The notes under the pieces were generated by a model that ran no database searches, was not told where the DNA came from, and saw nothing but the letters and a program-made list of their open reading frames with translations. The position numbers and the translations under genes were made by a program. Of a stretch of 40,888 nucleotides of DNA, positions 1 to 40,888 are shown piece by piece (the first letter of the stretch is position 1; every line of letters begins with the position of its first letter). Origin of the DNA: an uncultured Candidatus Saccharibacteria bacterium (GTDB taxonomy: Bacteria; Patescibacteriota; UBA1384; 2-12-FULL-50-11); the NCBI GenBank assembly GCA_964348645.1, contig CAYGDK010000002.1:1-40888 (forward strand), written 5' to 3'.

Positions 1-55
1 ATAACATCAACTGATGGCCTTTGTGTAGCAACTACAAGGTGTATACCTACTGCTC
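1..55. repeat. Terminal overlap, copy 1 (identical to 40834-40888)
   Basis: ATAACATCAACTGATGGCCTTTGTGTAGCAACTACAAGGTGTATACCTACTGCTC is present at both ends; an ORF reads in frame across the junction. Confidence 0.95.
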
Positions 56-1730
56 TTGCTTTTTGTGCAAGTCTTACAATAGAGTTTTCAATACTTACAC
101 TCAACAGTTCTCCATCTTCGTTTTTAACACGATTAAGCATTAAGTCTGCAAGTTCATCAATAACTACTACTATGTATGGCATTGTTTTGTTTACGCTTGA
201 ATTGTAATCATCAATTGTTTTAACTCTGGCGGTTTTTAGTGTTGTGTATCTACTTTGCATTTCTTCAACAAGCCATCTTAATGAAGCTTCCGCGTCTTCT
301 GTCTCGGTTATAACCCTGTCAATTAAATGTGGTAGATTCTCATAATCCATAAATTCAGTTTGTTTTGGATCAATAAGTAATACTTGTAAATGTTCTGGGG
401 TCATTGCTTCTGTCAATGTTTTAATAACCACGTTCATAAATACTGACTTACCAGATCCAGTTGTACCACCAATTAATAAATGAGGTGCTTTGTTTAAACT
501 TATCTTTTGTGCTTTGCCGTAAACATTAACCCCTACTGGTATTTCAAGTTTTTCTTTTTCTACCAAAGACTTTGACCAATCTATTGTTCCCTGTTTTTTG
601 TTTGATACTTCTACTCCAACAAGTCCACTTTCTGGGATAGGTGCTTGGATTCTTACGCTTTTAGATTCAAGAGCAAGTGATAAATCTGGTTCGTATGCTT
701 TGAACTGGCTCATCTTAACACCCCTTGATGGCTTCATTGTGTAAAGTGTGACGTTTTGGCCTACAAATGTTTCTTTCATTTCTACTGCAACCCCAAACTC
801 TTGTAGTTTAATTCTAATTTTCTCTTCGTCTGATAGGTTAGTATTTGCCTCAATTTCACTATTAACATATTCAACTGATCTCATCTTTGTTAATGTTGTT
901 TTGTGCGAAACCTGTGGAATTGCTTTAAAGTCTATAACATCAGCCACAAAATCTTTCCAAGCTTCTTTGCCGTTCATGTAGTCACCAAAATTTGGTAGAT
1001 ACTTTTTCTCTGGGTTTGCGATTTCAGTTAATACCTCAGTATAGATTTTATACATATACTTTTTGTACTCTGGGTGTTTATCAAAAACAATCTCGTATGG
1101 TTGAATCTGTGGCTCTCCGCTTTTATTCTCAGATAATTTAACTTCTAAAAATGTCATTGAATATGGATCTCTACCAAACTTTGCTCTAATTGTAATGAAG
1201 TTCCACATTGCTTGGAGAATGTAATCTGGCTGTTCGTCGTCTTTGTCTGTGTGAAATCCTACAAACTTATAATCCCACATTTTTAAAAGATTATCTTTTT
1301 CACTAACAACGTCGGTTATTGCCTTAAGTGGAATAGGTAAAATCTCGTCTTCAAGTCCTTTGTCTGTTGTTACCATAACCTCAACACCTAAAACATTACC
1401 AAGATTTGGTTCTTCTTTTCTATAGTTGTTTACGCCTTTTGTATAATTTTTAAGCATTTGCTCACGAGTTCCAGTTTTTCCGTAATCAATATCAGCGTCT
1501 TTTAAAGTGTTTAAATAAGCAAGACCGACCTCTACACCCTTTTCAAAGTTTCCTGTCTTGTAATAGTGTTCCAATGCTTTGTGACACGCTTTACCTACTG
1601 TAGCTGTTGGAGAGTTCTTGTAATCAAAGATACCTAAAATATAGTTCTTGAAGAACTGTTGTTGGTTTGAACAAAATAAGCGTACTGATGAGTAGCTTAA
1701 ATGATCTAATGGTAATACAATATCAGTCAT
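1..1730 (-). CDS. PD-(D/E)XK (RecB/Cas4-like) exonuclease fused to an FtsK/SpoIIIE-type ATPase. This is the 5' part of a 636-aa ORF that leaves the left edge and resumes at 40833
   Basis: Absent from the ORF track because there is no stop in the window. Hand translation from ATG 1730-1728 gives MTDIVLPLDHLSYSSVRLF..GKACHKALEHYY..GVEVMV..ITDVV..MWDYKF..QAMWNF, then LLIGGTTGSGKS (Walker A), YIVVVIDELADL (Walker B) and VATQRPS. The start overlaps the recT stop (ATGACTGA). Confidence 0.85.
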   Translation of the reverse strand, partial: MTDIVLPLDHLSYSSVRLFCSNQQQFFKNYILGIFDYKNSPTATVGKACHKALEHYYKTGNFEKGVEVGLAYLNTLKDADIDYGKTGTREQMLKNYTKGVNNYRKEEPNLGNVLGVEVMVTTDKGLEDEILPIPLKAITDVVSEKDNLLKMWDYKFVGFHTDKDDEQPDYILQAMWNFITIRAKFGRDPYSMTFLEVKLSENKSGEPQIQPYEIVFDKHPEYKKYMYKIYTEVLTEIANPEKKYLPNFGDYMNGKEAWKDFVADVIDFKAIPQVSHKTTLTKMRSVEYVNSEIEANTNLSDEEKIRIKLQEFGVAVEMKETFVGQNVTLYTMKPSRGVKMSQFKAYEPDLSLALESKSVRIQAPIPESGLVGVEVSNKKQGTIDWSKSLVEKEKLEIPVGVNVYGKAQKISLNKAPHLLIGGTTGSGKSVFMNVVIKTLTEAMTPEHLQVLLIDPKQTEFMDYENLPHLIDRVITETEDAEASLRWLVEEMQSRYTTLKTARVKTIDDYNSSVNKTMPYIVVVIDELADLMLNRVKNEDGELLSVSIENSIVRLAQKARAVGIHLVVATQRPSVDV

Positions 1731-2475
1731 GTTTGGCAGTTTCTATAATTCCATCTTCGCCCTCTAAAATAGATTTCTCTTTTTTAACCTTTGGCTCGGT
1801 TGTTATTATATTCTTTTTGATTTTGTCTTTTTTAAGAAACTCGGATAATGATTTTTTTCTGTCTACTACTGGATCAACCAATACCGTGCCAGATTCTACT
1901 TTTTTAGTTTCCTCTTCAATTACTGGATAGTCTTCTGCGACTTCTTGTATGTCTGAGGCACTACCCATAACTTCTGGGATATAAGTCTTAATAAGTTTTG
2001 ATAATGCTAGGTATCTGAGTTTTAATTGTCTATTAACTCCCTCTCTCCAGCCAACTTTTAATTGACCAGTACTTGTTTTTGTATAACCAGATTTCTCAGC
2101 AGAATCAAACGAGGCGGTGTCTTCGTATTTCTCTTTATCTTTTCTAACTATTGCAGTTACGCTTCCACCACGATCAACTGATTCTTTGTATTCAATTCTC
2201 CAACCATGCTCTCTCACTCTTCTGGCCAGTGCTTGACCCCAGATATTTATCTGACCATTTACGATATAAAGTGATTTGACAGATTCAAGAGGTTTCATTC
2301 CCATTTCATAACCTGACTGCATTATCATTATTGCTTGTTGTGCGTTTGCAATGTTTTGAGGTAAAGCCTTTGATTCTATAAATGTTGTGGCCATATCTTT
2401 CATTTGACCCCAGACTTCTGGTGAAAAATATGTATCTTTAATTGTTGTTATTTCCGTAGATTTCGTAGCGTTCAT
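1723..2475 (-). CDS. recT: RecT/Redbeta-type single-strand annealing protein
   Basis: 250-aa ORF. ..GYEMGMKPLESVKSLYIVNGQINIWGQAL.. and ..RQLKLRYLALSKLIKTYIPEV.. resemble RecT-family motifs. Lies immediately upstream of the exonuclease domain. Confidence 0.75.
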   Translation of the reverse strand: MNATKSTEITTIKDTYFSPEVWGQMKDMATTFIESKALPQNIANAQQAIMIMQSGYEMGMKPLESVKSLYIVNGQINIWGQALARRVREHGWRIEYKESVDRGGSVTAIVRKDKEKYEDTASFDSAEKSGYTKTSTGQLKVGWREGVNRQLKLRYLALSKLIKTYIPEVMGSASDIQEVAEDYPVIEEETKKVESGTVLVDPVVDRKKSLSEFLKKDKIKKNIITTEPKVKKEKSILEGEDGIIETAKHD

Positions 2476-2479
2476 ATTT

Positions 2480-2647
2480 TTATCTTCCTAATTTCTTCAT
2501 TCTTCCAACTAAATAATAGATTCTTCCAACTGATAGATCATACTTTTGCATAATGTCTATCATTTCCATTTTGCCCTGTTGAAACAATTTATAGTCTTGA
2601 AACAATTCAAGATTTCTTTCTTTTTTCTCTCTGTCTATATCTCCCAT
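2480..2647 (-). CDS. Small helix-turn-helix-like protein (55 aa), possible regulator
   Basis: The track ORF 2480-2677 was trimmed to the internal ATG at 2647, because a TTGACA-16-TATAAT promoter lies inside the longer version. MEMIDIMQKYDLSVGRIYYLVGRM looks HTH-like. Confidence 0.5.
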   Translation of the reverse strand: MGDIDREKKERNLELFQDYKLFQQGKMEMIDIMQKYDLSVGRIYYLVGRMKKLGR

Positions 2648-2654
2648 GCTTTCA

Positions 2655-2682
2655 ATTATAGGCGTTATATACCCCATGTCAA
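2655..2682 (-). promoter_or_regulatory. Early promoter, family copy 1: TTGACA-N16-TATAAT, 7 nt from ATG 2647
   Basis: Minus strand reads CAGTTGACATGGGGTATATAACGCCTATAATTGAAAGCATG. About 50 nt are shared with the copies at 36844 and 39106. Confidence 0.55.
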
Positions 2683-2852: not shown

Positions 2853-3152
2853 ATGAATAACGAAGAATACAGACTATACATAGGTAATTTAGAATACAAT
2901 ACTACATCTTCCGACCTTACAACTTATTTGGAGGAAGCAGGAAAAGTGTTTAAGGTTGATATTATTCGCGATGGTCAAACAGGGAGAGCAAAAGGTTTTG
3001 CATTTGTTAACATGGAAAACAAAGAAAGTATAGACAAAGCAATTGAACTGTTTCACTTAAAAGAATTTCGCGGACGAAAACTTGTAGTATCAGAAGCAAA
3101 GACAAGAACTACTAATTATATTCCAAGTCCATCAAGAACTACTTTTAGGTAA
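2853..3152 (+). CDS. Single-RRM RNA-binding protein (99 aa)
   Basis: RNP-2 LYIGNL and RNP-1 KGFAFVNM at canonical spacing. GGGGTG SD-like box 8 nt upstream of the ATG. Confidence 0.9.
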   Translation: MNNEEYRLYIGNLEYNTTSSDLTTYLEEAGKVFKVDIIRDGQTGRAKGFAFVNMENKESIDKAIELFHLKEFRGRKLVVSEAKTRTTNYIPSPSRTTFR

Positions 3153-4542: not shown

Positions 4543-4776
4543 TTACAAACCAGTCAAACCGTTATTGTTTATAATACCCGTGTCTAGTTTGTGCAACATT
4601 TTGTCTATACCTGAAAGCAAAGCAATAACAAAAGCCATTGCCCACACTTGCCAAGTAAACTTTTGAGATTGTAAATCAAGAATAACTGTTGGAATTACAG
4701 CCATAATTGAAGTTCTTAAAAGCTCTTTTAATCCCTCCATAACTGCTGTTTTATTAAATTTTGTCATAATTCTCAC
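4543..4776 (-). CDS. Holin-like small membrane protein
   Basis: 77 aa with two hydrophobic segments. GTGA overlap with the M23 peptidase stop (alternative ATG at 4767). Confidence 0.55.
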   Translation of the reverse strand: MRIMTKFNKTAVMEGLKELLRTSIMAVIPTVILDLQSQKFTWQVWAMAFVIALLSGIDKMLHKLDTGIINNNGLTGL

Positions 4777-5687
4777 GCCCTCTCTGTAATTATTACCAAA
4801 CCACCAAAAGAAAGAACCTTAACATAGTCTTTATCTTGGTATTTGTATACAACTTTAATTTGTGAAGCGTCGATTGCTTCTTTAAGCTTTACCATCAATC
4901 CCTGAGCCTTACCCACAAGCTCTTCATTACTTGATCCGATGGTAACACCTAAAATTTCCTTTAAGGAATAAAGAGTATTTTTGTATTCCTCAATAGTTCT
5001 CTCCATAGCAACGTCGTTATCTTCTGCGTTCCAAGCTTCCAACCACTTAACTTTAGATCTACTATCGTTTTTAAGAAGATCATTAATCAAGTCAACTGTA
5101 TTTTCGTTCTTTTGAAGTCTAGCTTTTTTCTCATCATTGTTTGGATACTCGCCAGTTATTGCTTTGTAGGCGTCTATTATAATTTGTTCTTTGTTGTTTT
5201 CCATAGGTTTTGGTATTATCGGTTCTGTCTGATCCACAAATTCAACAACCAGCTTAACTTCTTTTTCGTCTCTATATTCAGTATGGCCATGAGCACCTGT
5301 GGAATTACCCGTACTTCCCATTTGTGCAACCGTCTGACCAGCCGAGACTTCTGTTCCAACAGGTAAAACCGATCCCTGTTTAAAGTGTGAACCCAATTGA
5401 TAAATAGTTTTTCCATCTACAGTTCCTTTGATTTTAATATAGTTTCCATAATCTGCTGTTAATAATGCTCTCGGTTTTATTTTACCTTTTGAATCTAATA
5501 CTTTGTAAGGGTCACTTTCTGTGTTGGCCAACCAGTTTCTAGTTTCGCTATTTTTAGATTGTACGACTTTACCAAAAATAGAAGATTTGTAATTTGTATC
5601 TGGCACGTCGTCGTGATCATAAGCATTGTACCCATGTGACTTTGGAGTACCTGTCTGCTTATTATTTGTAGGTTTTAATACCTTCAT
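4773..5687 (-). CDS. M23 (LytM-type) peptidase, probable endolysin
   Basis: GSTGNSTGAHGHTEY is the M23 HxH signature. Flanked by TM proteins. Confidence 0.85.
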   Translation of the reverse strand: MKVLKPTNNKQTGTPKSHGYNAYDHDDVPDTNYKSSIFGKVVQSKNSETRNWLANTESDPYKVLDSKGKIKPRALLTADYGNYIKIKGTVDGKTIYQLGSHFKQGSVLPVGTEVSAGQTVAQMGSTGNSTGAHGHTEYRDEKEVKLVVEFVDQTEPIIPKPMENNKEQIIIDAYKAITGEYPNNDEKKARLQKNENTVDLINDLLKNDSRSKVKWLEAWNAEDNDVAMERTIEEYKNTLYSLKEILGVTIGSSNEELVGKAQGLMVKLKEAIDASQIKVVYKYQDKDYVKVLSFGGLVIITERA

Positions 5688-6043
5688 GATCTATTTTCTT
5701 TGTTCTTTTTCATTATACTCTTGTCTGGCAACTCCATTGATTGCTTCCTCAAGCTTTCGCTTCTGAAAGTTCTAGTTGTTAGTCCAACTGGTATAAGTAT
5801 AAGCGGTAGCCAAGAAACTGCAAGTTTGTGAGCCAACGGGTCTGTTTCTAAAACTACTGGTAAAAATGCCAAGACAAAGAAGAAGATAGACATTGATAAA
5901 AACATCGTTTGTAGAGCCTTTATGATAGGCGTAGGCTTGTTATTCTTGTATCCCATGAGGTAGAGATAAGCTAGATTGGAGAACTCAATCCCTATCCAAA
6001 GATAGGTTACAACTCGTAACAGGGTTATCAAATTTAAAGTCAT
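5684..6043 (-). CDS. Multi-pass membrane protein (holin/pinholin candidate)
   Basis: 119 aa with three hydrophobic segments. ATGA overlaps on both sides. Confidence 0.6.
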   Translation of the reverse strand: MTLNLITLLRVVTYLWIGIEFSNLAYLYLMGYKNNKPTPIIKALQTMFLSMSIFFFVLAFLPVVLETDPLAHKLAVSWLPLILIPVGLTTRTFRSESLRKQSMELPDKSIMKKNKENRS

Positions 6044-6339
6044 GGTAGTGGTATAAATTTTAATGCTTTTTCAGCTCCAGCCAATATGACTAAAGCGGAA
6101 ATTGATATTAAAATTATATACGTCACTATCTTGTAAAACTTCTCGTTTCCATCTACGAGCTTTTTAATCACCTCTGCTCTGGCGTCGTCCTTGTTCATAT
6201 GAAGAACGTTTTGATCATTTATGTTGTTTAGGGCGTCTTTGACACCATTAAACGCTTCTGTATTCTTTAAAACCTGATCTGAAATTAATTTTTGGTTTTC
6301 AAAAACAAGGTCTAGTAGTCTTTCGTTTGTGTACTTCAT
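6040..6339 (-). CDS. C-terminally membrane-anchored protein (lysis accessory candidate)
   Basis: 99 aa with a single C-terminal TM segment, IVTYIILISISALVILAGA. Confidence 0.6.
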   Translation of the reverse strand: MKYTNERLLDLVFENQKLISDQVLKNTEAFNGVKDALNNINDQNVLHMNKDDARAEVIKKLVDGNEKFYKIVTYIILISISALVILAGAEKALKFIPLP

Positions 6340-6352
6340 ATGTCTATATCTA

Positions 6353-6361
6353 ACTATAGCA
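6353..6361 (-). promoter_or_regulatory. Extended -10 TGCTATAGT upstream of the lysis cassette
   Basis: Minus strand reads TTGCCA-N15-TGCTATAGT, 13 nt before ATG 6339. Confidence 0.35.
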
Positions 6362-6474
6362 CACTCACATATTTGGCAACCAGTACCTAGTTGAATTTGG
6401 GGCGAATACTGCTAGAAGAATTACTATTTTGAATATGAACTCTAACATTTCGGCAGTAAAGTCTATAATCTTGT

Positions 6475-9400
6475 TCATTTTAATGCAACTAATTTTTGCC
6501 TGACTACAGCCCATTGCTCTGCTCCCCAATTATCGTAGAGAAGTTTTGCAAACTTTGTGTTCTTTTCTGGATCAAGCATTGCGTCCCAAGCTTTTTGAAC
6601 CTCGTCATTATCAAGTCCATCTTTGTTTAAATACGGTTTGTCGATAATTCCAGCTTCATACATCATGGCTCTTTCCTTTTTACCATTAAGCCAAGTGTAG
6701 TATGTAATGTTGTTTATTCTGAACAATCCGCGATCAATTGAATCAACCTCTTCTTTATTAACAGGATTAATACCTTTTTTAATTGGGGCGTCGTCACTCC
6801 ACATTCCAGTCTTTGGATCAATTCTATTTGCAATATCAATTTCAGCTCCAGTTTTTCTCTCGGCATTTTCCTTTGTTAATATAATCTTTGCGTTTTCTGA
6901 CTGATCTCCCCAGATCTTATCAATAACATCATCGTGTTGTTTTGCTCCAAGCTTAACTTCACCACTAACAACATCAACATTTTCTGGTTTCTTTTCTGCC
7001 TTTTTGTATTCGTCCATTTGATAATTCCAGTCTGGTGCATTATCTGGCCACTTTTGACCTGTCATTTCTACATAGTTGTTTTGCCAACCTTGCAAGTATT
7101 GTGCTTGTTCCTTACCCTCTTTGACATCAATTTTTACACCGTTTGGTAAAACAATTCTAACCATGTCGTCTGCAAAAGAAGATTCTAGCCTATATGGAAA
7201 CTTACGCTCTACAGCTGGATCTTCCTTTTTAAGTAACTTTCTAAAACCAGATTTCAATATGTCTTTTGCTTTCTCTTGCCAAGTTTTCTCTTCTACTGGA
7301 GAGATAGGCAAACCATAATTAAACATCTGGTCTTCGTCAAAAGCTTTGACCTCACTAACGAGACTAAACTTTGACTTCATAAAAATATCTGCAACTAGTT
7401 TTTCGCCAATTTTTAACTCGGATAGATTGTCTTTGACTTTGTTAAACTCTTTTTCTACATCTCTTGATATAACATCTTCTTTTTTAGATAGGTCGTAAAT
7501 CTCGTTAAACTCAGATTCACTCATTCTCTTTTTCATTTCTTTTAGAAGCTCAACCTTTTCTGCGTTTGAGGTTGCGTCAATTAAGCTGTTAACGTTTGGG
7601 TCGCCCTGACCGCGAACAATGCCAAGCCTAAACTTTTTAAGAGTATTTGTTTTGGTTCTTCTTTCGTCCTCTCCAACTGGCGATTCGTGACCTAAAACAT
7701 CGGTTATTAATTGCTTTTCTACTTCATACTTGTTGGTCATGCTTGGGTCTTTTTGATATAGTTTAATAGCGTTATCAACCTTGTTTCTAATTTCTAATGA
7801 CTTTACAGCAGAAGCTTTTCCAGATCCCTTTAGAATATCCCTGTTCATGTCTTTTTGACCCTGATCGCTTACCTTAATCCATCTACCTAGAATGTTACTT
7901 ACAATTGGTAAGTCTAATGTTTTTTGATACCAAGTCTTGTCTGTTTGCTCTGTAATATAAGTTTTAAAGAATGTCCCACCCCCAAGTTGATTAAATACCC
8001 AAGTTGCAAATGGTTTAAATGCGTATTTTCCACCAGCTTCAAACTCAAGATCGTTAATAACATTTCTACCTCTAAAGAAATCATACGGATTTTGACCTGC
8101 CAAAAACTGTGATATTCCAAAGATCGTTGTTAATGTTGGTGATAAGCTTGGTACTTGGCCTCCAGTAAAGCTTAAAAGATCCTGAGCGTCTTTTGCAATG
8201 CTTTGCTCGTTATTTCCTGCCCTTAATACTTTCCACAAAATACCACCCAAAAGCCTACCTGTTTCGTCCTGTGGCATACGGATATAAGTTGTTTGATTAT
8301 TTTTTCTACCAATTGGGATTATTATATAATTGGTTTTGTCATACTCTGAAATGTCCTCAAACATTTTTCTTAATGCGTCTCCAAATAGTCCAGCCAACGC
8401 ACCAAACATCAAAAGCTTTGGGGTAAATGTAACCTTTGCGGTCTTCCACCAATAACCAGATCTTGTTGTCGGATTAACAAAAGCAACGTTTAAGTCTGAC
8501 CTAACACCCTCTTTAATGGCGTTTGCAAATAAAAACACCTCGTTATACCAAGCACTACCAGCACCGCGTCTCAAGAAGTCTGGCGACCCTATGGAGGTTC
8601 TTATGAATGACCCTAGCTGTTTGTTTGGTAATTTACCATTTAGCTCGTTATAACCTGAAACTTTTGGTAATGTTTCAATAAAGTTACCAGATTTTTCAAT
8701 AGTGTCTAAAATTCCATTTAATACTTTGTAAACTTTAGTCTTGTAAATAAAACCTTTCTTTTCGTTTGTTAGTGAACTTAATCCAACTTTAGCCATGACA
8801 TAATCAAGTTGTTTTTCGTCCTCGCTCATACCACTTACAATATCATTGTAGGTAACACCCAACATTTTGCCCTTTTCCATCTTGGCTATGGTTTCATCAA
8901 AACCACCCCATGCTCTGGCTTTTGCCGATGGTAGAGCTTCTTTGTATCTAACAAGGGCTCTCCAAAGCGTCATGTTTGGTGTATTTTTGTAAAGTCTTAA
9001 AAAGTCTTTAAATAAGTTAAATCCTTGAAACCCTAAATTAAATGTAATAAATAGTGGCCTGTAGAGTTTACTGTTAAAGAACTTAATAACACCTAATACA
9101 GCGTTTGCTTCACCTGTTCCTGAGTATTCCATTGTACTTGCAATGTATGGGTCAATGTAATAACCCTTAAATACTCCATTTTCCATGACCGTAAACAATG
9201 CTAGATTTTTATCCTTTGGTTCAACTGGCATTTGAGTTTTGCCATTAAATACTGTCTTTGCGTCAATTATCTCTTCTGAGTAGTTTGTCTTTAAAAAGTT
9301 AACAATTGATGTCTTAACCTTGTTTCTCTCAATTGCACGAATCATACTAATTGTTTTTACAAGTGTTGATGTAGCTGGGTTTGCAATCTCTTTTAAAGTA

Positions 9401-12400
9401 CCAACCTGTTGCTTAATGGAAGCAGAGATGTTTGTATCCATGTAATCTAATACTTGATAGGTTGCGTATGCTGGGTTTGCTTTCATTTCTGCAATTAATG
9501 ATTCTTTGTAAAACCCTGCTTCTTGTGCTTCGTCCAAAACACTTTTGATTGCTTCACGATATTTAGGTAGCAATTTTTCTACTATAGCGAACTTGTCGCC
9601 TAGATTCTTCTTTAAAAAATCAAGTTGTGTTTGTGCGGTTTCAACATTAAAACCAAGTGGGTTTGCCAGTCCTTTAGGTAATAAGCTTTCAACTTCGCTG
9701 TAAAGTGACTTACCATCTGCACTCTTTAGTTTTGAGAGCTCTTTTTTCATTACTTCAATTTGTTTACCTGCCCCCATTTCCTCAATATCCTGTGGCAGTT
9801 CACTAATAATGTTGTTGTAAAGATCTGGGTTTAATCCTTTAATTTGTAGAATAGGACTTTTGACAGCCCCTCTTTCTTTAACTACTCTCTCCAAAAATAG
9901 TATTTCTCCCAAATCTTCCCAATTAACATTGTTTTTGTTTAGCTCTTCGTAAATTGGTTGTATGTTTTCTTCAACAAAGTTTTTAACTAATCCTCCAACA
10001 TAGTTGTGCTCTTCAAGCATGTAGACTGGATTAAGTTCGTCTGCAACAAATATCCCCTGTTTTTTTAATTGTGCGACCTTATCAATTAGTCTTTGGTTTT
10101 TATCTATCAATTCATATTTAAGTCTAAAAGAATAATCTTTGCTCTTTTGTTTTTTCTCTTCAAGTAATACTTTGAATTTGTCCTCACCCTTAACAAACAT
10201 GTTTCTGATGTCTTGTTCCCTTTGAGAAAGTATGGCGTCTTCACCTTTGACCAATAAGTCCCAAGTTTTAAAGAACTCATCTTTGATTGCTGGTTTCCTG
10301 TCAATGTGTTCAAAGAATCCGTTCCAGAATGTTGGGGCAGTTTCTTTAAGTAGTGCTGGGTCATTAAACAAAACGCTTACTGCGTCTGCGTATAATTCTG
10401 GTGTTGAATATCTATATTTTGTAAAGCTTGGATTTTCGTTTTCGTCAAAAGGTTTCCAGATTTGTGTTAACTTTTTAAGCTCTGTTGTTACAACCGAGTT
10501 TCTTAATTTAATTGTTTTGTGAATAGCATTTAACTTTTTAGTTATTCCCTTAATCTCTTTAAGTAAAGACAAGTTCAATGATCTATTACCCTCTGTAACA
10601 GCTCTTTTTCTTTGCAATCTCAATGATCTTCTTTGACCTAATAAAATATCAGTTTCGGCCTCAACCTTTACTCCACTAAACTTTTCTCTCAAGAATCTAT
10701 TTAAACTTGCGATTCTTCCAATTATGTTTCCACGAGCCATTGTTTTGTCTGGGAAGTAATCGGCCAAATGCCCCATCTCGTGAGCCAATGTTTTTGAAGC
10801 TTGAGCTTCGTCTCTAAATATCTCTCTGTTTAAGGCAATCTTGCCGTCACCAGTTGGTACAAAAAATCCGTTTGGTCTTCCACCACCCAAAGACGGTCTA
10901 GGTCTTGGTAAAACAACTGATGGAAAACTGCCTGTTAATTCTCTAACCATTCTCACAAGCTCTGGAAACTCAATAACCTTAATTTGTGTATCTAACTTTT
11001 TACTTAAGTTTTTAAGATCTGCAAATTTTCCAGCAGAAGCGTAAGCCTTACCAGCTTTATATACTCTAGTTTGTTGAACCGTACCTTTGGCTGTTTTAAA
11101 TGCTTCTACATCAACATTTATTTTATCTCCAATTTTTAGATTGTCTGAGTTTAACTGCATTGCTTCTGGAATTAAAGCAAATCTTGATTTTTTACCTTTA
11201 AATACCAACACTTTATCTGGAGTGGATTCTTTATTGTATATGTCTTTTATCGGTTTACCTGCCTCAACTTCCAATACTGGATTGTCCATAAACTCTTTAT
11301 TATTTGCAATCAATGTTTTAATATCAGTTTTTCCTATTTTTGGTCTGGTGTATTCTTGTTCTCCTTTTGAGTTTGTTTTTGCTACCAAGAAAGCGTTTGA
11401 AACTCCAGTATTTCCATCAAACCCAACTCTATTAATTTCGTCTACCAATTCTTTAACCTTAACCACTTTAGATGGTGCAAGTACCAACCCCTCTTTTTTA
11501 GATTCCACTTTAGGCTTTGCTTCAACTTTATCTTTGGTATATGTAATTGGAATACCACCGACTGTTTCTGTTGGTAGATTTTTCTTTTTGACCTCTTCTT
11601 TTGAAACAATCTCTTTTGTATCCACTTTTGATATAGTTTGATCTACTTTCTCTATTGCTTGGTTATAGAAATCTTTTAATACATCAATATCACTAATTTT
11701 ATTTTCTGCGTAAAGTTTTTGATACTGCGGTGCTTGTGCAAATGAAACAAAAGCATTAAGTAAATCGCTACTTTCTTTTGGTATGTTTGTATCTCCAAAA
11801 ACATAATTAGTTTTGTTTGTAAATGCCTGAATAAATTCCTCTGCTGTCTTATACTTTTTAGCCTCTTCTACTAATGGTGTTGGATCTGTTTTGTTAACAT
11901 TTAAACTTGTTACCCCCACGTCGTCTCTTTGTTGGTTTATAACTGGTTGTCCGTTTTCTTGGGTCAATGCCTGTTTAATAACATCTGGCACATTTTTGTC
12001 TGGCTCTTCGTCTTCTGTTTTTCCTTGCAAAACCTGTTCTTTGTCTGCAATTATATTAATTACTTTTGCTTCTGAGGCTGTTTGATCTCTTGCGTCACTT
12101 CCTGCGTCAAAACCGCTCAATGATCCACCGATAATTGCACCAATGATTCCACTTTCAAGCATACCGTCTGTTGCCTCTTTCCCAGTATTTACATTTGAAA
12201 TTGCGGATTGTATAGCTTCTTGGCCACCCTCAAAGAAAGCAGAAGCAAATAATCTTTTAAGTGCTGTTTTGTTTTCTCCAAAGATACCAAGTTTGTTTGA
12301 TATTCCTATTGTAAAAGCGTTTGCCCAGAATGTCGCACTCGCCTTTTTTGAGGATTCTTCTTTGTCTTTACCCTGTTTAAGATTATCATCATATACAGAT

Positions 12401-13344
12401 CCAGCCTCACTCATGGCTTCAAGAGCTGTTGCTGATGAACTGGCAAAGAATAAAGCAACACGGGGGGATACCTGAGCCAATACTGATGTAAGCTTTCCTG
12501 CTCCAATTGATGGTACAAAAAATGTTAAAGCAGAACCCACACCCTCTGCCAATTGATCTGTAAATGTTGGCATTTCTGGCCTCAACTCGTCTGCCCAAAG
12601 CTTCAACTTTCCTGATACTTTGTCGCTACCCTTGCCTAAAACATCTGCTTTTTTTCTTTGTATGTCTTTTATAAACTGTGGCACAAGCGGATTCTTTTCA
12701 TAATTTTTGGCGTTTAATTCACTTGCCCAAGTTACTGCGTCTGCCATAGAGGCTGTACTTTCCAATACTCCAGCACCAATTGATTTTTTGGTTTGTTTGT
12801 TTGATAGTTTGACTACAGTATTGTTTCTTTTAATAATACTTCCAATACTTCCTGAGTTGTCGGCAACAATACTTTCAAGGTCTTGGATCTCTTTTTGTCT
12901 CTTCTCGCTATACTTTTTGTTTTGCTCGTCGTTTAATTCCTTAATCTTTAATTGAATTGGTGGAATTGTAGACATTCTATGATAATCGTTATAGCTTATC
13001 TTTCCCTGTGCGAAGTCTGTGGCGTTTTGTTTTTGAACATTAAACTCAGTAACAAAGTTATTTTTAATAACTTCTGCCTCTTTTTGAAATGCTGGTTTGA
13101 TTTTGTCGTTAAAGGTATTCTTAATAAAGTCACCTGCCTTTTCTAAAAATCCTTTTTTCTTTTGCTCAACTTGTGCAACCTGAGATGGTTTCTCTGTTAC
13201 AACTGGCTTGGTGGCATTTAATATAGAATCTCGTCTCTTTTGGAAGTCTGAATCATTTGACGTAACATTACTAGGCTTACTTGATGAGGTATCTTGTATT
13301 CCTAAAACTTTATTTCTTCTCTTTTTAAATTCATCGTCATACAT
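6475..13344 (-). CDS. 2289-aa polyvalent virion/ejection protein with a zincin HExxH motif and a lysozyme-like C-terminal domain
   Basis: Uninterrupted ORF. AHEMGHL is encoded at 10768-10782. C-terminal SIDRGLFRINNITYYTW (about 6717-6736) resembles the lysozyme D-x-G-[IL]-F-Q-I-N-x(3)-W motif. Confidence 0.85.
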   Translation of the reverse strand: MYDDEFKKRRNKVLGIQDTSSSKPSNVTSNDSDFQKRRDSILNATKPVVTEKPSQVAQVEQKKKGFLEKAGDFIKNTFNDKIKPAFQKEAEVIKNNFVTEFNVQKQNATDFAQGKISYNDYHRMSTIPPIQLKIKELNDEQNKKYSEKRQKEIQDLESIVADNSGSIGSIIKRNNTVVKLSNKQTKKSIGAGVLESTASMADAVTWASELNAKNYEKNPLVPQFIKDIQRKKADVLGKGSDKVSGKLKLWADELRPEMPTFTDQLAEGVGSALTFFVPSIGAGKLTSVLAQVSPRVALFFASSSATALEAMSEAGSVYDDNLKQGKDKEESSKKASATFWANAFTIGISNKLGIFGENKTALKRLFASAFFEGGQEAIQSAISNVNTGKEATDGMLESGIIGAIIGGSLSGFDAGSDARDQTASEAKVINIIADKEQVLQGKTEDEEPDKNVPDVIKQALTQENGQPVINQQRDDVGVTSLNVNKTDPTPLVEEAKKYKTAEEFIQAFTNKTNYVFGDTNIPKESSDLLNAFVSFAQAPQYQKLYAENKISDIDVLKDFYNQAIEKVDQTISKVDTKEIVSKEEVKKKNLPTETVGGIPITYTKDKVEAKPKVESKKEGLVLAPSKVVKVKELVDEINRVGFDGNTGVSNAFLVAKTNSKGEQEYTRPKIGKTDIKTLIANNKEFMDNPVLEVEAGKPIKDIYNKESTPDKVLVFKGKKSRFALIPEAMQLNSDNLKIGDKINVDVEAFKTAKGTVQQTRVYKAGKAYASAGKFADLKNLSKKLDTQIKVIEFPELVRMVRELTGSFPSVVLPRPRPSLGGGRPNGFFVPTGDGKIALNREIFRDEAQASKTLAHEMGHLADYFPDKTMARGNIIGRIASLNRFLREKFSGVKVEAETDILLGQRRSLRLQRKRAVTEGNRSLNLSLLKEIKGITKKLNAIHKTIKLRNSVVTTELKKLTQIWKPFDENENPSFTKYRYSTPELYADAVSVLFNDPALLKETAPTFWNGFFEHIDRKPAIKDEFFKTWDLLVKGEDAILSQREQDIRNMFVKGEDKFKVLLEEKKQKSKDYSFRLKYELIDKNQRLIDKVAQLKKQGIFVADELNPVYMLEEHNYVGGLVKNFVEENIQPIYEELNKNNVNWEDLGEILFLERVVKERGAVKSPILQIKGLNPDLYNNIISELPQDIEEMGAGKQIEVMKKELSKLKSADGKSLYSEVESLLPKGLANPLGFNVETAQTQLDFLKKNLGDKFAIVEKLLPKYREAIKSVLDEAQEAGFYKESLIAEMKANPAYATYQVLDYMDTNISASIKQQVGTLKEIANPATSTLVKTISMIRAIERNKVKTSIVNFLKTNYSEEIIDAKTVFNGKTQMPVEPKDKNLALFTVMENGVFKGYYIDPYIASTMEYSGTGEANAVLGVIKFFNSKLYRPLFITFNLGFQGFNLFKDFLRLYKNTPNMTLWRALVRYKEALPSAKARAWGGFDETIAKMEKGKMLGVTYNDIVSGMSEDEKQLDYVMAKVGLSSLTNEKKGFIYKTKVYKVLNGILDTIEKSGNFIETLPKVSGYNELNGKLPNKQLGSFIRTSIGSPDFLRRGAGSAWYNEVFLFANAIKEGVRSDLNVAFVNPTTRSGYWWKTAKVTFTPKLLMFGALAGLFGDALRKMFEDISEYDKTNYIIIPIGRKNNQTTYIRMPQDETGRLLGGILWKVLRAGNNEQSIAKDAQDLLSFTGGQVPSLSPTLTTIFGISQFLAGQNPYDFFRGRNVINDLEFEAGGKYAFKPFATWVFNQLGGGTFFKTYITEQTDKTWYQKTLDLPIVSNILGRWIKVSDQGQKDMNRDILKGSGKASAVKSLEIRNKVDNAIKLYQKDPSMTNKYEVEKQLITDVLGHESPVGEDERRTKTNTLKKFRLGIVRGQGDPNVNSLIDATSNAEKVELLKEMKKRMSESEFNEIYDLSKKEDVISRDVEKEFNKVKDNLSELKIGEKLVADIFMKSKFSLVSEVKAFDEDQMFNYGLPISPVEEKTWQEKAKDILKSGFRKLLKKEDPAVERKFPYRLESSFADDMVRIVLPNGVKIDVKEGKEQAQYLQGWQNNYVEMTGQKWPDNAPDWNYQMDEYKKAEKKPENVDVVSGEVKLGAKQHDDVIDKIWGDQSENAKIILTKENAERKTGAEIDIANRIDPKTGMWSDDAPIKKGINPVNKEEVDSIDRGLFRINNITYYTWLNGKKERAMMYEAGIIDKPYLNKDGLDNDEVQKAWDAMLDPEKNTKFAKLLYDNWGAEQWAVVRQKLVALK

Positions 13345-23239: not shown

Positions 23240-24205
23240 TTATTGTGTTGCTCCTGATACTAATATAACACCAAATGCGTTGTTCAAGATTTTAGTAATA
23301 AATGTTGCTTTCCAACCAGATGTTGATCTTTGATCAAGTGCGTCTGATGTTCCAGCAGAACCTAATGGTTTGATTATATTCTTTAATGCTTGTCCTGAGA
23401 TTCTAGTTATACCGTAGAAATCTTTACCAAAGATAGGTGATTTGTATACTTTTGCTGAGCTAGATCCCTCTGCAACTTCGTATGAGTTTTCTGAAAGTAA
23501 GAATCTTACATTTCCAAGTGCTCCGACTTCATCTTCCATAACCTTTGCTTGAGATGGGTACTTTTGTACTGGGATAAAGTTTGTGTCTCCCTCAAGATCT
23601 CTTAATACTTTAGGATGGATTATTCCGATAAATGCTCTTCCAACTGGAATTGTGTTAAATGCGTCCATTGGGTCGATCATCTCTGTGATCATTTTTGCGT
23701 GATTTGTTCTTAATGTTAAGACTGCTTCTTTAACTTCTGTTGCGTTTACAACCATTGAAGCTGTAATGTCTGATACTTGAGAAGCTGTACTTGCATATTG
23801 AATTGTTGTACCAGCTACTAAAACGTTTCTACAAAGTGTGTCTAATGTTTCACCTGCTTGGTCACCAAGAACGTTTGCTGTTTCAACTAAAAGTGGATCA
23901 AGTGTTGAGAATTGTAATACGTCTGAAAGAGTTACATAATCTCCATATTGTAAAACTGTTGCTGTAACGTCTGTGATTGACAATGCTGAACCTGCTGGTG
24001 TTACACCCTCTGTAAGTGCTGTTGTTGCGGCGGTCAAGTTACCATATCTCCTGAATTTAATTACCATTCCGTTACCTTCTGGTATATCTCTTACTTGTCC
24101 AAATCTTGTAAAGATGAAATTAGAAACTGCTCTGGTTAATAGAACTGGAGAATACCAATTGTCTGTTGCTTGTGTTACTTCTGCTGATGTTGTTATTGTA
24201 TCCAT
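23240..24205 (-). CDS. Major capsid protein (HK97-fold type)
   Basis: 321 aa, directly after the acidic scaffold gene. ..YGDYVTLSDVLQFSTLDPLLVETANVLGDQAGETLD.. is typical of caudoviral MCPs. Confidence 0.8.
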   Translation of the reverse strand: MDTITTSAEVTQATDNWYSPVLLTRAVSNFIFTRFGQVRDIPEGNGMVIKFRRYGNLTAATTALTEGVTPAGSALSITDVTATVLQYGDYVTLSDVLQFSTLDPLLVETANVLGDQAGETLDTLCRNVLVAGTTIQYASTASQVSDITASMVVNATEVKEAVLTLRTNHAKMITEMIDPMDAFNTIPVGRAFIGIIHPKVLRDLEGDTNFIPVQKYPSQAKVMEDEVGALGNVRFLLSENSYEVAEGSSSAKVYKSPIFGKDFYGITRISGQALKNIIKPLGSAGTSDALDQRSTSGWKATFITKILNNAFGVILVSGATQ

Positions 24206-25496: not shown

Positions 25497-27449
25497 TTAA
25501 GCTTGGTTCATAGCCGATACTTGAGATGGTTGTCCACCACCGAGAGCTTTCATTACATCAACTGGCTGTCCCTGTTGAGTTGGTTCTGGCTGTGGAAATA
25601 GTTCTGGTTGATTCCTTTGAATACTCATTGCTTGTAAATGAGCTTCCATGTGAGCAAGTTTAGCTTCCGTTTCAGAAGCCTTTGAGTGAATCTCCCAATG
25701 TGTCTTGTGATCATCTTGTGCTGTAATTGGTGGCAAGTTGTTTTTGTTGATGATGTCGTTTTCTTTTTCCGCCCTGATCTCTTCCACAGTTGGAGGGAAT
25801 AACCTATCAATCTCATCTCTTTGCATACCGAACAGTTTGGCCAATTTCTTTTGGAAATACCTTTTGTTTGATGTTGGGTCTGCGTTGACGAAGTTACCAA
25901 ACTGAGTAAGTAAGGTTCTTTGTTTAAAGTTGTTGGCTTCTGAGATGATAGCTGATTCAATAACAACATCTGGATCAACTGAGGCTACGATGTTTTCTCT
26001 TGTTAATGGTCTCCATTTTGCACCAAACGCTCCATTAAGTCTGATGATCTTTTCATCAATCTTGTCTTTGAAGTTTTTCTTGTATAGACCATACCACCTT
26101 TGCCAAAAAGCCTCTTCTGACCAACCAAATATACGAGTTGCAAGTGCAAACCTTTTGTCTACTCTTGAGGCTACTAGATTCAATTCCCCAAGTGTTCTCT
26201 CTTGTTTAGATAGCTGTCCCTGTTGAATGTCTGGGTTTGCTGTTGCTCTTTGTGCAGAAGCGTCAAGAGAATCTAATACAAACTGTAATAATTGCATGTT
26301 TGGAGAAGCTTTATTGATAGGACTAATGGCTGTCTGTGCGTTTGACTTTCCCTTTAATGGTACAAATCTGTTGAAATCTTTATTAATGTTGGCTAGGTCT
26401 GCTGGGTTTTTAACCGCTTTCTCGTCATAAGCATATGCTGGGTATAGATCAGACTTAAGTATTTTAATACCCAAGTTAAGTGCAACTGATTTTTGGCGTT
26501 GTTTATCCTCTGTTAAATCTGGGATTGAAATACCATTCCAAGTATGTGCTGTTGGATATAATGGTCTATCTATAAGTGGCCAGTCGTCCTTTGTTGATCC
26601 AAGATCCTCAAATCTGTTAACCGTCTTCATGTTGTTTGACAAAACAAGTGATACCTTTCTACCTTTAAAGTTAGTTAACCATTCAAGCATGTTGTAATCG
26701 GCATTACCATATAAACTTGCTTCTTGTGCAAACCCTTTACCTAAAACATCTTCTAACCCCTGAGCATTAAATCTTTCTCTTTGTGCATTTTCTAATAATG
26801 AGTTGAGTTTACCTGATGTTCTAACTTCACCAATGTTAATAAAGTTTCCGTTATCTTTCATTCTTTGCTTGGTCATTGAGATTTCGCGACCTCCAAACTT
26901 CATCTCTCCGTTCTTTTCAATGTCTCCGTTAACTGATATTGCAAATGGATCATGTAAGAATGTCATTGAATCCCAAACAACTGGCTTTGGGCACATCAAA
27001 CGTCTATCAAACTCTTTCATGTAAACAAAGCCTCTACCAAAAAAACAAGCGTCCCAAATCCATTCATAATCAATCTGAGCCTTTTTCATTAACTTGTAGT
27101 CATACTTACCAAGTGAGTTTAGATTTTCTTCTGTGTCTTGATCTCCCTCTTCTTTAGCTTCAAAGTTTGCAGTCATTGTGTCGTCATAAAGTGCGGCCAA
27201 AGTACCCTGCAATATACCAAACATTAAAGGTTCGCCGACCAAATCTTTGTCTAGTTTTTGATTGTTGTATAACTTAAGTCTGGTTAGATTTTCTTGAAGT
27301 CTTGCACTTTGGGAAATGTAAGCAATTGCATACTCGGTTTGAACCTGTTTAATAAGATCGGCAAAGCTTGTTTGGTCGTACTTATCCATCGCTCTTTGCA
27401 AGTGACGGGATACATACTCATCTTGTGGTTTTTCCATTGGTTCTGCCAT
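25497..27449 (-). CDS. Portal protein
   Basis: 650 aa. Assigned by size and by position between the terminase block and scaffold/MCP. Confidence 0.75.
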   Translation of the reverse strand: MAEPMEKPQDEYVSRHLQRAMDKYDQTSFADLIKQVQTEYAIAYISQSARLQENLTRLKLYNNQKLDKDLVGEPLMFGILQGTLAALYDDTMTANFEAKEEGDQDTEENLNSLGKYDYKLMKKAQIDYEWIWDACFFGRGFVYMKEFDRRLMCPKPVVWDSMTFLHDPFAISVNGDIEKNGEMKFGGREISMTKQRMKDNGNFINIGEVRTSGKLNSLLENAQRERFNAQGLEDVLGKGFAQEASLYGNADYNMLEWLTNFKGRKVSLVLSNNMKTVNRFEDLGSTKDDWPLIDRPLYPTAHTWNGISIPDLTEDKQRQKSVALNLGIKILKSDLYPAYAYDEKAVKNPADLANINKDFNRFVPLKGKSNAQTAISPINKASPNMQLLQFVLDSLDASAQRATANPDIQQGQLSKQERTLGELNLVASRVDKRFALATRIFGWSEEAFWQRWYGLYKKNFKDKIDEKIIRLNGAFGAKWRPLTRENIVASVDPDVVIESAIISEANNFKQRTLLTQFGNFVNADPTSNKRYFQKKLAKLFGMQRDEIDRLFPPTVEEIRAEKENDIINKNNLPPITAQDDHKTHWEIHSKASETEAKLAHMEAHLQAMSIQRNQPELFPQPEPTQQGQPVDVMKALGGGQPSQVSAMNQA

Positions 27450-28114: not shown

Positions 28115-29293
28115 CTACTTCATGTTAAACCATGCTTCTGGATCTTTAGTTTTAGATACATATTTAATGAACTTATAGAGATAATCAAACCATTCTGCAT
28201 ACAGTAATCGCACGTTACTGGTTAAATACTTTTTGTCTGCGTTCTCTTTTATCTCCTGTCTTATACTTACCTCTCCAGATCTTTTAATACACCACATCGC
28301 GTCTCTCACAAAGTCTTCAAATGTATTTGACCTGAAACTATGCTTGTTGTCTATTGTCTCTGGAAACACGCCAAAGTCTGTTGTAAGCGATGGAGTACCA
28401 CAAAGCTGTGCTTCAACGCTTGTACCAGCAAACGGCTCAAGATATGTTGATGGAGTGAATACTGCAATCGCTTTGGCCATTAACTCTGCTTTTACCTTTG
28501 GATCGTTAATAACACCCAAGTATTCTGCACCCTCTAAATCAAAACCCTCTGTTAATTGACCAACAATTTTAAGTTTCTTCTTTAATCTCTGTGATACTCT
28601 TTGAGCTATTTTGATACCTTTCTTTGGAATTGTGCGACCAATGTATAAAAAGTAATCTTCTTTTGGTAACTCAAGTAAACTATTTGGGAAGTCTTTATCA
28701 AACCAGTAGTTTGGAATGACACGATCAGTCATTTTGCCATCATAATTGACATTCTTGTTCTTGCCATATTCCATACCGTGTATAAAGCTTCTGACGCTGT
28801 TACTCTCAAATGCTCTAAATCTTGCGTGTGTTTCGTGATAGCCAATGCCTGTCTCACAAGTTGCTGGTATATTAACTGCGTCTGAGATTGCTTTCCAACT
28901 CTTGCCACCTTGAGGTTGTAACAAGAAGTCTCCCTCTTTTTTGCGTTTGTTGATTTCAATAATGGTGTTTGTTATCCATTTCTTGTGAACTGCTGATAAT
29001 GGTTCTACTTCATCAAATCTAAATGTTTTACCCTTTGTCCAATCGTATCCAATAGCAAAGCGATTATCTCCATCTCCATATGACTGCCTAATATCTTCAA
29101 GTGTGTGTGTTATTACAATCTCGTCTGCTTCAATAACGCTTCCCTCTGCACCGTAGAATATAACTGTGTGGCCTAGAGACTTGAGCATTGACGCCAACTT
29201 TACAATCTTTTGAGTAAATGCACACGGCAAATACTTCTCACTTGCTGGTAAGTGATATAGACCAACCATGTGGAATGTGTATTTATTGTTCAT
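28115..29293 (-). CDS. Glycosyltransferase (GT-B, GT4-like)
   Basis: C-terminal ..STYLEPFAGTSVEAQLCGTPSLTTDFGVFPETI.. matches the E-x-F-G..EA..G-x-P motif. Confidence 0.8.
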   Translation of the reverse strand: MNNKYTFHMVGLYHLPASEKYLPCAFTQKIVKLASMLKSLGHTVIFYGAEGSVIEADEIVITHTLEDIRQSYGDGDNRFAIGYDWTKGKTFRFDEVEPLSAVHKKWITNTIIEINKRKKEGDFLLQPQGGKSWKAISDAVNIPATCETGIGYHETHARFRAFESNSVRSFIHGMEYGKNKNVNYDGKMTDRVIPNYWFDKDFPNSLLELPKEDYFLYIGRTIPKKGIKIAQRVSQRLKKKLKIVGQLTEGFDLEGAEYLGVINDPKVKAELMAKAIAVFTPSTYLEPFAGTSVEAQLCGTPSLTTDFGVFPETIDNKHSFRSNTFEDFVRDAMWCIKRSGEVSIRQEIKENADKKYLTSNVRLLYAEWFDYLYKFIKYVSKTKDPEAWFNMK

Positions 29294-34578: not shown

Positions 34579-34582
34579 AGGT

Positions 34583-40081: not shown

Positions 40082-40651
40082 TTAAAGGTTTTTGCTTCCG
40101 TTAGATTCTCTATAGTTAAACTTTCTGTGGGGAAGAACTTTATTAAGAACAAAAAAACAATCCTCATCACTATAAAATTTGAGAAAATCGTCCTGTAATT
40201 CTTTAACACTCTTTCTCAGTCCTTTGTAGTTTTGACACCTATCACTAATTAAACCTTTTAAATCTTCACTCCACAATATCTCCATTACCTTATTAATTGA
40301 TAATCTCCACTCTACTTTTTGATCCTCAAATACCCATTCGCGACCATTTTCTAAATCTTCCACCGCATGAAGTCCAACAGCCACCCCCATATTTCTTAAC
40401 TTCGCAATTTTACTTACTGGGGCGACTATATACATTTTAGTAAAAAGGCCTATTGCGTTTGAAATTTGAGATGGTAATCTTGAAAAATTATCTTTGTCTG
40501 TTTTTATTTCATAATAATAGAAGTAGTTATCTCCAAGAATAACAAAGTCCCTCCGCGAAGAACCACCAGAACTATTAAACTCTGTTTGTTGGAAGTTCCC
40601 AACACCCTTAAACTTATCCTTTAACATTTGCTTGATTGATTCCTCTGTCAT
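40082..40651 (-). CDS. MmcB-like PD-(D/E)XK nuclease-fold protein (189 aa)
   Basis: RRDFVILGDNYFYYYEIKTDKDNF gives a D..E-x-K arrangement like the MmcB/DUF1052 family. Confidence 0.55.
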   Translation of the reverse strand: MTEESIKQMLKDKFKGVGNFQQTEFNSSGGSSRRDFVILGDNYFYYYEIKTDKDNFSRLPSQISNAIGLFTKMYIVAPVSKIAKLRNMGVAVGLHAVEDLENGREWVFEDQKVEWRLSINKVMEILWSEDLKGLISDRCQNYKGLRKSVKELQDDFLKFYSDEDCFFVLNKVLPHRKFNYRESNGSKNL

Positions 40652-40652
40652 A

Positions 40653-40888
40653 TTATTTTATATAATATCCCTGTAACCTTTGTAAACCTTGTTCTCTAGG
40701 ATTCATGTATAAAAGATCTCCACTACCGATTAACTTTTCTGCTCCCACTTCGTCCAAAATTACTTGGCTATCTATTTTTGTACTAACCATAAACGATACC
40801 CTTGTTGGTATGTTTGCTTTGATTAAGCCTGTTATAACATCAACTGATGGCCTTTGTGTAGCAACTACAAGGTGTATACCTACTGCTC
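40653..40888 (-). CDS. 3' end of the same exonuclease-FtsK ORF
   Basis: Hand translation: ..[70 protein letters not shown], stop TAA at 40653-40655. 1730 + 181 unique nt = 1911 nt = 637 codons. Confidence 0.85.
40834..40888. repeat. Terminal overlap, copy 2 (identical to 1-55)
   Basis: Direct comparison with bases 1-55. Confidence 0.95.

Follow-up and report, generated by a model that had tools for sequence, protein, structure and literature searches.

What does a phage gain from an exonuclease that is fused in one chain to an FtsK-type DNA pump and encoded next to a RecT-like annealing protein? The question is raised by a gene that runs across the ends of a 40,888-nucleotide (nt) contig binned with an uncultured Candidatus Saccharibacteria bacterium (assembly GCA_964348645.1, contig CAYGDK010000002.1, positions 1 to 40,888), referred to here as the window, that is, the whole stretch of DNA that was analysed. 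To our knowledge, the exonucleases of the phage annealase-exonuclease pairs described so far have no motor, and no link between FtsK motors and recombination has been reported. Results of our analysis make it probable that the fusion protein is an ATP-driven end-resection partner of the annealase, a role predicted from sequence and comparable in principle to that of AddAB/AdnAB or HerA-NurA. What would set this system apart from other two-component recombinases is the FtsK motor of its exonuclease.

In the list of open reading frames (ORFs) of the window, the gene starts with an ATG at position 1730 of the minus strand and reaches base 1 after 576 amino acids (aa). The first 55 bases of the window are an exact copy of its last 55, and because of this terminal repeat the contig closes on itself, being circular or terminally redundant. 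The same frame goes on at 40833..40653, which adds 60 aa and a TAA stop (40653-40655), and the joined product of 636 aa is 100% identical to a database protein (P0001) recorded from two contigs, the longer of 40,974 bases. An open-ended ORF at 40653..40886 duplicates 17 residues of the fusion. The single 636-aa ORF proposed in an earlier note on this DNA is thus real (minus strand, 1730..1 and then 40833..40653), and all exonuclease and motor motifs quoted there are present; the span 1-2475, given there to the finding, does contain the fusion but covers the RecT-like gene at 1723-2475 as well. The parts of the gene are as follows.

1..1730, minus strand: fusion gene, codons 1-576 (ORF list, Pfam domains, AlphaFold2 model)
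915-1730, minus strand: nuclease domain, aa 1-272
858-914, minus strand: disordered linker, aa 273-291
600-857, minus strand: FtsK alpha domain, aa 292-377 (Pfam)
563 downwards, minus strand: FtsK beta domain (RecA-fold ATPase), from aa 390 (Pfam)
40653..40833, minus strand: fusion gene, codons 577-636 and TAA, end of the FtsK beta domain (open-ended ORF 40653..40886, terminal repeat, P0001)
40834..40888, no strand: assembly overlap, exact copy of bases 1-55

The assignment of the two halves to PD-(D/E)XK nucleases and FtsK motors is supported both by Pfam profiles and by fold searches with the use of Foldseek. Pfam places PDDEXK_1 (PF12705) at residues 10-226 (E 9e-11, 42.6 bits vs. a cut-off of 22), FtsK_alpha (PF17854) at 292-377 (E 1.4e-17) and FtsK_SpoIIIE (PF01580) at 390-574 (E 3.3e-49). 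The AlphaFold2 model of the full-length fusion (mean predicted local distance difference test score, pLDDT, of 90.7) consists of two confident modules, and only residues 274-288 fall below 50.

In the nuclease half, the catalytic order of PDDEXK_1, namely E, D, (D/E)-x-K and then Q on the following helix, is present, and the core residues E117, D140, D153-Y-K155 and Q173 are invariant in all 26 N-domains of an alignment with 24-53% identity (A3). Residues 1-272 form a soluble PD-(D/E)XK fold in the N-domain model (pLDDT 92.8). Comparison of this model by VIA-align gave a Z of 16.9 with the putative exonuclease 3l0a (220 aligned residues, root-mean-square deviation 3.5), and of 16.4 with the AdnA nuclease, 15.2 with RecE, 13.7 with Cas4, 12.1 with AddB and 9.0 with lambda Exo; MGME1 and Dna2 are further fold matches, and the Foldseek list agrees with that of VIA-align. 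The named enzymes matched by this fold all act on DNA ends. The description of the nuclease as Cas4-like holds for its fold but not for iron-sulphur cysteines: no cysteine column is conserved in alignment A3 or in that of the full-length fusions (A1), where C20 and C49 of the window protein are not shared by its relatives, and the four-cysteine iron-sulphur cluster of Cas4 is therefore absent.

A profile search with this nuclease among 1.84 billion representatives retrieved 200 clusters with E<=1e-30, of which the best 150 were inspected. They comprise about 65 fusions (600-720 aa) and 57 stand-alone relatives of ~250-340 aa that cover the whole domain. The gene of one stand-alone relative (locus L116) follows downstream of a Bet-like annealase gene at a distance of ~1.2 kb, and no FtsK gene is in its vicinity. 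Since stand-alone relatives exist, one of them near an annealase gene without FtsK, the fusion looks, from these sequences, like an ordinary annealase-partner exonuclease that gained a motor. In a FastTree phylogeny of N-domains, the fused or free label needs 8 changes vs. 38 when shuffled; this tree is weakly supported, with 50 of its 111 forks open, and for that reason a single origin of the fusion is not claimed. A profile of the stand-alone clade (A5) retrieved only fusions from IMG/VR, at <=30% identity. Many of the stand-alone relatives (P0200, P0201, P0205, P0223, P0231, P0249, P0265 and others) have short acidic tails (e.g., ...ALDL, ...EGIDL, ...AVDL, ...DDLDF) similar to C-terminal tips of the SSB type, and these tails may serve to bind a partner.

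The motor half matches the FtsK structures 2ius and 6t8b (Foldseek E 1e-34, template-modelling score by target 0.75-0.79), and its profile search of the PDB gave an E-value of 2e-109. From its 38-40% identity to hexameric FtsK we infer a hexameric ring capable of ATP-driven translocation along duplex DNA. Walker A (G422-T-G-S-G-K428-S429), Walker B (D525-E526) and R559 are invariant in all 45 full-length members of alignment A1. Residues were mapped to PaFtsK through a 2iuu alignment, with an offset of 245 derived from loop residues and with the residue list of Jean et al. (PMC7321959). In this mapping the arginine finger R620 of PaFtsK corresponds to R559 of the fusion, and residues R632, S634, G640 and K643 of DNA loop II correspond to R571, S573, G579 and K582, of which G579 and K582 are invariant and R571 and S573 at least 90% conserved. 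K377 of the alpha ring corresponds to K339, a position that is mostly K or R in the family. Since the catalytic and motor residues are invariant or nearly so, both activities look intact and under purifying selection. The reading of the motor as a complete FtsK alpha/beta unit with no gamma domain stood: PF17854 and PF01580 are hit, and the gamma winged-helix domain (PF09397), which serves KOPS reading and XerD activation, gives no hit in the fusion, which ends a few residues past the last aligned residue of the beta domain. The N-terminal membrane anchor and linker of FtsK are not found in the fusion either, residues 1-272 being the nuclease instead. The motor belongs to the PHROG 1358 family together with stand-alone phage FtsK-like proteins, and in PADLOC the fusion matches only the FtsK-like parts of SspH and, weakly, HerA.

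The gene neighbourhood also bears on the proposed role; the window part of it is given below.

1723..2475, minus strand: RecT-like single-strand annealing protein, 250 aa (PHROG, Atlas)
2480..2677, minus strand: small ORF at the operon head, 65 aa, weakly Mor/helix-turn-helix-like (Pfam Mor E 0.008, below cut-off; tentative)
2655..2682, minus strand: candidate sigma-70 promoter upstream of the annealase-fusion operon, TTGACA-16-TATAAT, 12/12 (consensus match only)
40082..40651, minus strand: sce7726-family protein, 189 aa, downstream neighbour (NCBIfam, Atlas)

The stop of the RecT-like gene overlaps the start of the fusion gene by 8 nt (ATGACTGA), an arrangement by which the two genes are predicted to be translationally coupled. 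The window annealase matches PHROG 4171 (E 3e-8), PHROG 561 (E 8.5e-8) and RecT clusters of Atlas (0.95-0.96), and its profile search of the PDB gave no match; on these sequence comparisons it is assigned as a divergent RecT-like protein, and its orthologues precede the fusion in loci L003-L010 and L013. Of the 47 IMG/VR loci that hold a full-length fusion, 45 have an annealase gene upstream of it on the same strand, which ends <=860 nt before the called fusion start and is usually adjacent to it or overlaps it; the two exceptions have too little upstream DNA. It is likewise adjacent in 14 of 15 further fusion loci from metagenome-assembled genomes (MAGs), the fifteenth having only ~60 bases of upstream flank, and in two loci (L171 and L174) it stands downstream of the fusion. 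The partners fall into three PHROG groups: 561/4171 (the window type), 148 (RecT) and 252/2780/10056 (Bet-like). The partner of PHROG 148 is an unambiguous RecT, with a profile match to PDB 7ub2 at E 9e-60. Across the loci compared no downstream neighbour of the fusion is conserved. The swapping of the annealase family while the pairing stays is the pattern of exonuclease-annealase modules. It is this strict linkage to annealase genes of three families that favours end resection over replication initiation, the two roles between which the earlier note had left the choice.

Within the window, the sce7726-family gene begins 1 nt past the fusion stop. It had been described as an MmcB-like nuclease upstream of the fusion, but in the direction of transcription it is immediately downstream, and its product hits no Pfam family at E<=1; its matches are to NCBIfam NF033832 (sce7726_fam; E 6.4e-18, 65.3 bits vs. 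a cut-off of 70) and to Atlas PF26915 clusters (0.96). In none of the 47 IMG/VR loci with a full-length fusion does an sce7726-family homologue lie downstream of it, and the gene is not part of the conserved module. At the other end of the operon, the candidate promoter overlaps the first codons of the 65-aa ORF, which has an internal ATG at 2647, about at the predicted transcription start; this first operon gene may be leaderless or shorter than called.

The same architecture recurs widely, which was the check that the earlier note had suggested. A word-indexed search of 5.8 billion proteins found >120 clusters of 620-680 aa proteins with 40-59% identity, nearly all of them with the same three Pfam domains at full coverage; their sources are JGI, ENA, Logan and NCBI assemblies, and most of the contigs measure 30-45 kb. 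At least 47 IMG/VR loci have a full-length homologue, down to 29% identity, and a scan of GTDB species genomes with a narrower alignment (A8) added 18 loci, which makes about 65 full-length loci. Among 50,697 GenBank phage records, none covers >=80% of the fusion protein, and the nuclease half has no tblastn match there. In the literature searched, which did not include the 2004 survey of the FtsK-HerA superfamily, no account was found of a PD-(D/E)XK-FtsK fusion that has an annealase as its partner.

Many members are found in Saccharibacteria MAGs (L160-L174). Five copies (G001-G005; e.g., G004:C11:103487-105556 and 40484-41545) come from genomes of 0.6-0.9 Mb, where their contigs measure 87-370 kb; these genomes keep a separate cellular ftsK of 740-758 aa, once on the same contig as the fusion. 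These five copies are integrated elements, probably prophages of Saccharibacteria. Two IMG/VR homologues, L115 (IMGVR_UViG_3300020049_006509, 4609-5574) and L077 (IMGVR_UViG_3300028534_000005, 5917-7923), are interrupted by in-frame TGA only, and ORFs throughout the two loci become longer when TGA is translated. Of the five TGA codons of L115, three stand on columns that are mostly Gly in relatives, the GKTG motif included, a pattern that points to genetic code 25 (Gracilibacteria/Absconditabacteria).

The annealases may bear a trace of contact with the fusion in their C-terminal tails. The tail of the window annealase is disordered, rich in Lys and Glu, and contains a K-x-x-L-x-x-F-L motif; annealases of the window's subclade carry the weaker motif K-x-x-L-x-x-F/K-I/L. 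A clearer motif, L-K-M-G-N-L, occurs in nine of 62 unique annealase tails vs. three of 5560 background ORF tails, and the annealases that have it (six RecT-type and three Bet-like) adjoin one divergent fusion subclade. The shared motif hints, indirectly, at a docking peptide for the fusion. Complex prediction for the full fusion and the RecT-like protein gave a score of 0.11 vs. a mark of 0.32, which counts neither for nor against binding.

Taken as a whole, the two genes would constitute a phage recombination module made of an annealase and a RecE/RecB-type 5'-end nuclease fused to an FtsK alpha-beta duplex pump, in which the fusion, driven by ATP, probably takes the place that a simple exonuclease has in Red/RecET-type systems. 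Six subunits would form an FtsK-like ring on a double-strand end, and ATP hydrolysis would pump the duplex in at the beta face and out at the alpha face. This is the direction of DNA movement in FtsK, where the alpha ring is the exit (PMC7321959). Since the nuclease is N-terminal to the alpha domain and joined to it by a flexible linker, a hexamer would place six nucleases where the DNA leaves, and there, on linkers of ~20 residues, they would degrade one strand as DNA emerges. A ring loaded on an end with its beta face toward the duplex would feed DNA to the nucleases, with the junction remaining at the enzyme. The RecT-like annealase would then coat the resulting 3' single strand and anneal it to a homologous partner. 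Hexamer formation, the 5'-to-3' polarity of the nuclease, ATP dependence and the contact with the annealase are all presumed in this scheme. Recombination-dependent replication, repair, and concatemer formation before headful packaging may be its uses. More tentatively, and with slightly less than even confidence, we propose that an FtsK-type duplex pump was recruited into homologous recombination to power a viral end-resection exonuclease, to which annealases of unrelated families dock via short convergent C-terminal tails.

Several observations weigh against end resection by this module. With six nucleases around it, a pumped duplex could be cut in both strands. The loop I DNA contacts of PaFtsK, K657 and R661, correspond to K596 and Q600 of the fusion, which are variable within the family. 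The gene next to the fusion, which the earlier note called RecT, has RecT-like matches in PHROG and Atlas, but the window annealase falls below Pfam RecT, with no hit to this family, and its profile does not resemble that of the canonical RecT group (hhalign probability 0.3). Phages of the Page group keep a stand-alone FtsK-like gene by a replication-initiation gene, and since it sits apart from their RecT module, phage FtsK motors may have another ancestral role. Finally, HerA-NurA was recently reported to degrade both strands, and the authors of that work doubt its role in resection (PMC12977600).

The last of these points makes a degradative enzyme the main rival explanation. The hexamer would load on ends and destroy both strands of host or competitor DNA, in the service of host takeover, nucleotide salvage or the exclusion of rival elements, and the annealase would be a mere neighbour in a DNA-metabolism module. 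Six nuclease domains around the exit of duplex DNA would suit such an enzyme, and complexes of PD-(D/E)XK nucleases with HerA are DNA-degrading defence machines (PMC11291478), DUF4297-HerA (8zir, 8xav) being among the fold matches of the fusion. We nevertheless regard this explanation as unlikely. Annealase genes of three families are adjacent to the fusion in every locus with enough flank, including the two with reversed gene order, and the lack of conserved downstream neighbours completes a pattern typical of exonuclease-annealase pairs. Also a stand-alone relative of the nuclease is found near an annealase gene (L116), and the fusion is carried by prophages integrated in genomes of 0.6-0.9 Mb, where an unregulated shredder would be costly.

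Less likely again is a translocase of replication or concatemer processing, the motor of which would act on replication intermediates while the nuclease cuts branches or junctions or helps to start replication, clearing DNA before packaging. The stand-alone FtsK-like gene of Page directly precedes the replication-initiation gene, FtsK acts at late segregation and resolution steps (PMC7321959), and among the window ORFs scanned against PHROGs and Pfam there is no match to a DNA polymerase, helicase or primase, but only a half-size clamp-like protein. However, the nuclease fold matches end-processing exonucleases (RecE, AdnA, AddB, Cas4) and not junction resolvases, no replication-initiator gene is conserved beside the fusion, and the gene downstream of the fusion in the window is without similarity to Page gp27.

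A packaging or DNA-transfer ATPase, like the FtsK/HerA-class motors of membrane-containing phages or conjugative coupling proteins, is very improbable. Two matches point to it, a weak one to phrog_2666 (E 9e-8), which is a PHROG family of terminase large subunits, and that to the coupling protein TcpA, which by fold comes next after FtsK. The fusion protein has no membrane segment, though, and the closest relative of its motor, alpha domain included, is chromosomal FtsK. Moreover, as the earlier note had argued from a TerS/TerL pair elsewhere in the genome, the motor is not the packaging ATPase because the phage has a separate set of TerS, TerL, portal and HK97-type capsid genes. That the fusion is an assembly or frameshift artefact joining two separate genes, a suspicion raised by an ORF that crosses the contig ends, is refuted by independent assemblies and has a negligible probability, since the architecture recurs in the >120 independent clusters and about 65 full-length loci (IMG/VR and GTDB genomes) and the identical 636-aa protein was recorded from two contigs.

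The preferred reading, a motor-driven resection partner of the annealase, sets the module between several known systems. With lambda Exo and Red-beta, RecE and RecT of Rac, and phage RecB/Cas4-like pairs it shares an annealase gene that adjoins a PD-(D/E)XK exonuclease gene and is translationally coupled to it, and, as in other two-component phage recombinases, the pairing persists when one annealase family is exchanged for another. The known phage recombinase exonucleases are, however, without a motor and owe their processivity to toroidal trimers or tetramers, whereas the fusion carries an FtsK alpha-beta pump that is presumably hexameric. In AddAB, AdnAB and RecBCD, nuclease domains process DNA that the motors have translocated, and a RecB-type nuclease stands behind a motor at DNA ends, as proposed for the fusion; their motors, though, are superfamily 1 (SF1) helicases that track on single strands and unwind DNA, while the FtsK motor runs on intact duplex with no known unwinding.

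HerA-NurA of archaea and Deinococcus likewise combines a duplex translocase of the FtsK-HerA superfamily, in this case a hexamer, with a nuclease at DNA ends, and HerA structures (4d2i, 9x1m) are among the fold matches. It consists of two polypeptides, of which HerA is without the FtsK alpha domain, its partners are Mre11-Rad50, and the NurA fold differs from PD-(D/E)XK; the fusion is a single chain with the alpha domain, and its partner gene encodes an annealase. Cellular FtsK/SpoIIIE has in common with the fusion the alpha and beta domains, Walker A and B, the arginine finger and loop II, but its membrane anchor, long linker and gamma domain are all absent from the fusion, which has the nuclease instead. 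Among phage proteins of PHROG 1358, Bacillus phage Page gp26 and the FtsK-like proteins of Mycobacterium cluster J phages are 27% and ~41% identical to the fusion in the motor; such GenBank phage proteins stand alone, in contrast to the fusion with its nuclease half, and we know of no reported function for them. In Thermobifida phage P1312, FtsK and PDDEXK genes are present but separate. The anti-phage complexes DUF4297-HerA and Sir2-HerA (8zir, 8xav, 8woc) also join a ring of the HerA/FtsK superfamily to an effector, which in DUF4297-HerA is a nuclease (PMC11291478); they are two-protein systems of host defence, and the fusion is phage-encoded, single-chain, of the FtsK clade and annealase-linked.

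The remaining features of the window are those of a phage genome, nearly all genes of which are on the minus strand.

31991-32479: TerS
30386-31903: TerL
25497-27449: portal protein
23240-24205: major head protein
28115-29293, minus strand: glycosyltransferase between the terminase and portal genes (PHROG 3408 E 2e-56)
6475-13344, minus strand: 2289-aa ORF of the tail region (Page counterpart 1679 aa)
33790-34608, minus strand: Peptidase_M24, methionine-aminopeptidase-like, early region (Pfam E 3.4e-37)
38152-38733, minus strand: half-size clamp-like protein, 193 aa (PHROG 947, profile positions 138-296 of 368)
2853-3152, plus strand: single-RRM RNA-binding protein, 99 aa, the only clear plus-strand gene seen (Pfam RRM_1 E 2.5e-19)

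A 200-aa relative of the clamp-like protein is encoded between the RecT gene and the fusion in locus L018. The capsid protein of the window is 34% identical to that of Bacillus megaterium podophages of the Page group, its nearest cultured capsid relatives; in Page, a separate SbcC-like/RecT/hydrolase module lies apart from gp26. The same capsid protein was not found in the five fusion-bearing genomes of 0.6-0.9 Mb, the prophages of which have other structural modules. The guanine-plus-cytosine (GC) content is 36.5% in the window vs. 51% in the remainder of its bin (G000), the tetranucleotide correlation between the two is 0.16, and no short exact matches link the window to other contigs of that bin. 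Since its composition differs so strongly, the bin does not establish the host of this phage. The bin is itself heterogeneous, contigs C3, C5, C7 and C10 departing from its bulk composition (tetranucleotide correlation 0.01-0.66, GC 42-64%).

If the proposed role is true, the fusion represents a third way to build a resection machine, beside SF1 helicase-nucleases and HerA-NurA, and a new mechanistic class in which a duplex translocase is combined with a nuclease without a helicase. This would raise the question of how a duplex pump without unwinding activity feeds one strand to a nuclease. The proposal also suggests a role that could be tested for the many FtsK-like proteins of phages to which no function has been assigned. 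It would further mean that this module is a main recombination system of phages of Candidate Phyla Radiation (CPR) bacteria, including Saccharibacteria and probably code-25 lineages. CPR bacteria are, as far as we know, currently without genetic tools, and because some members of the family sit in Saccharibacteria prophages, the annealase-fusion pair is a candidate recombineering tool for these organisms.

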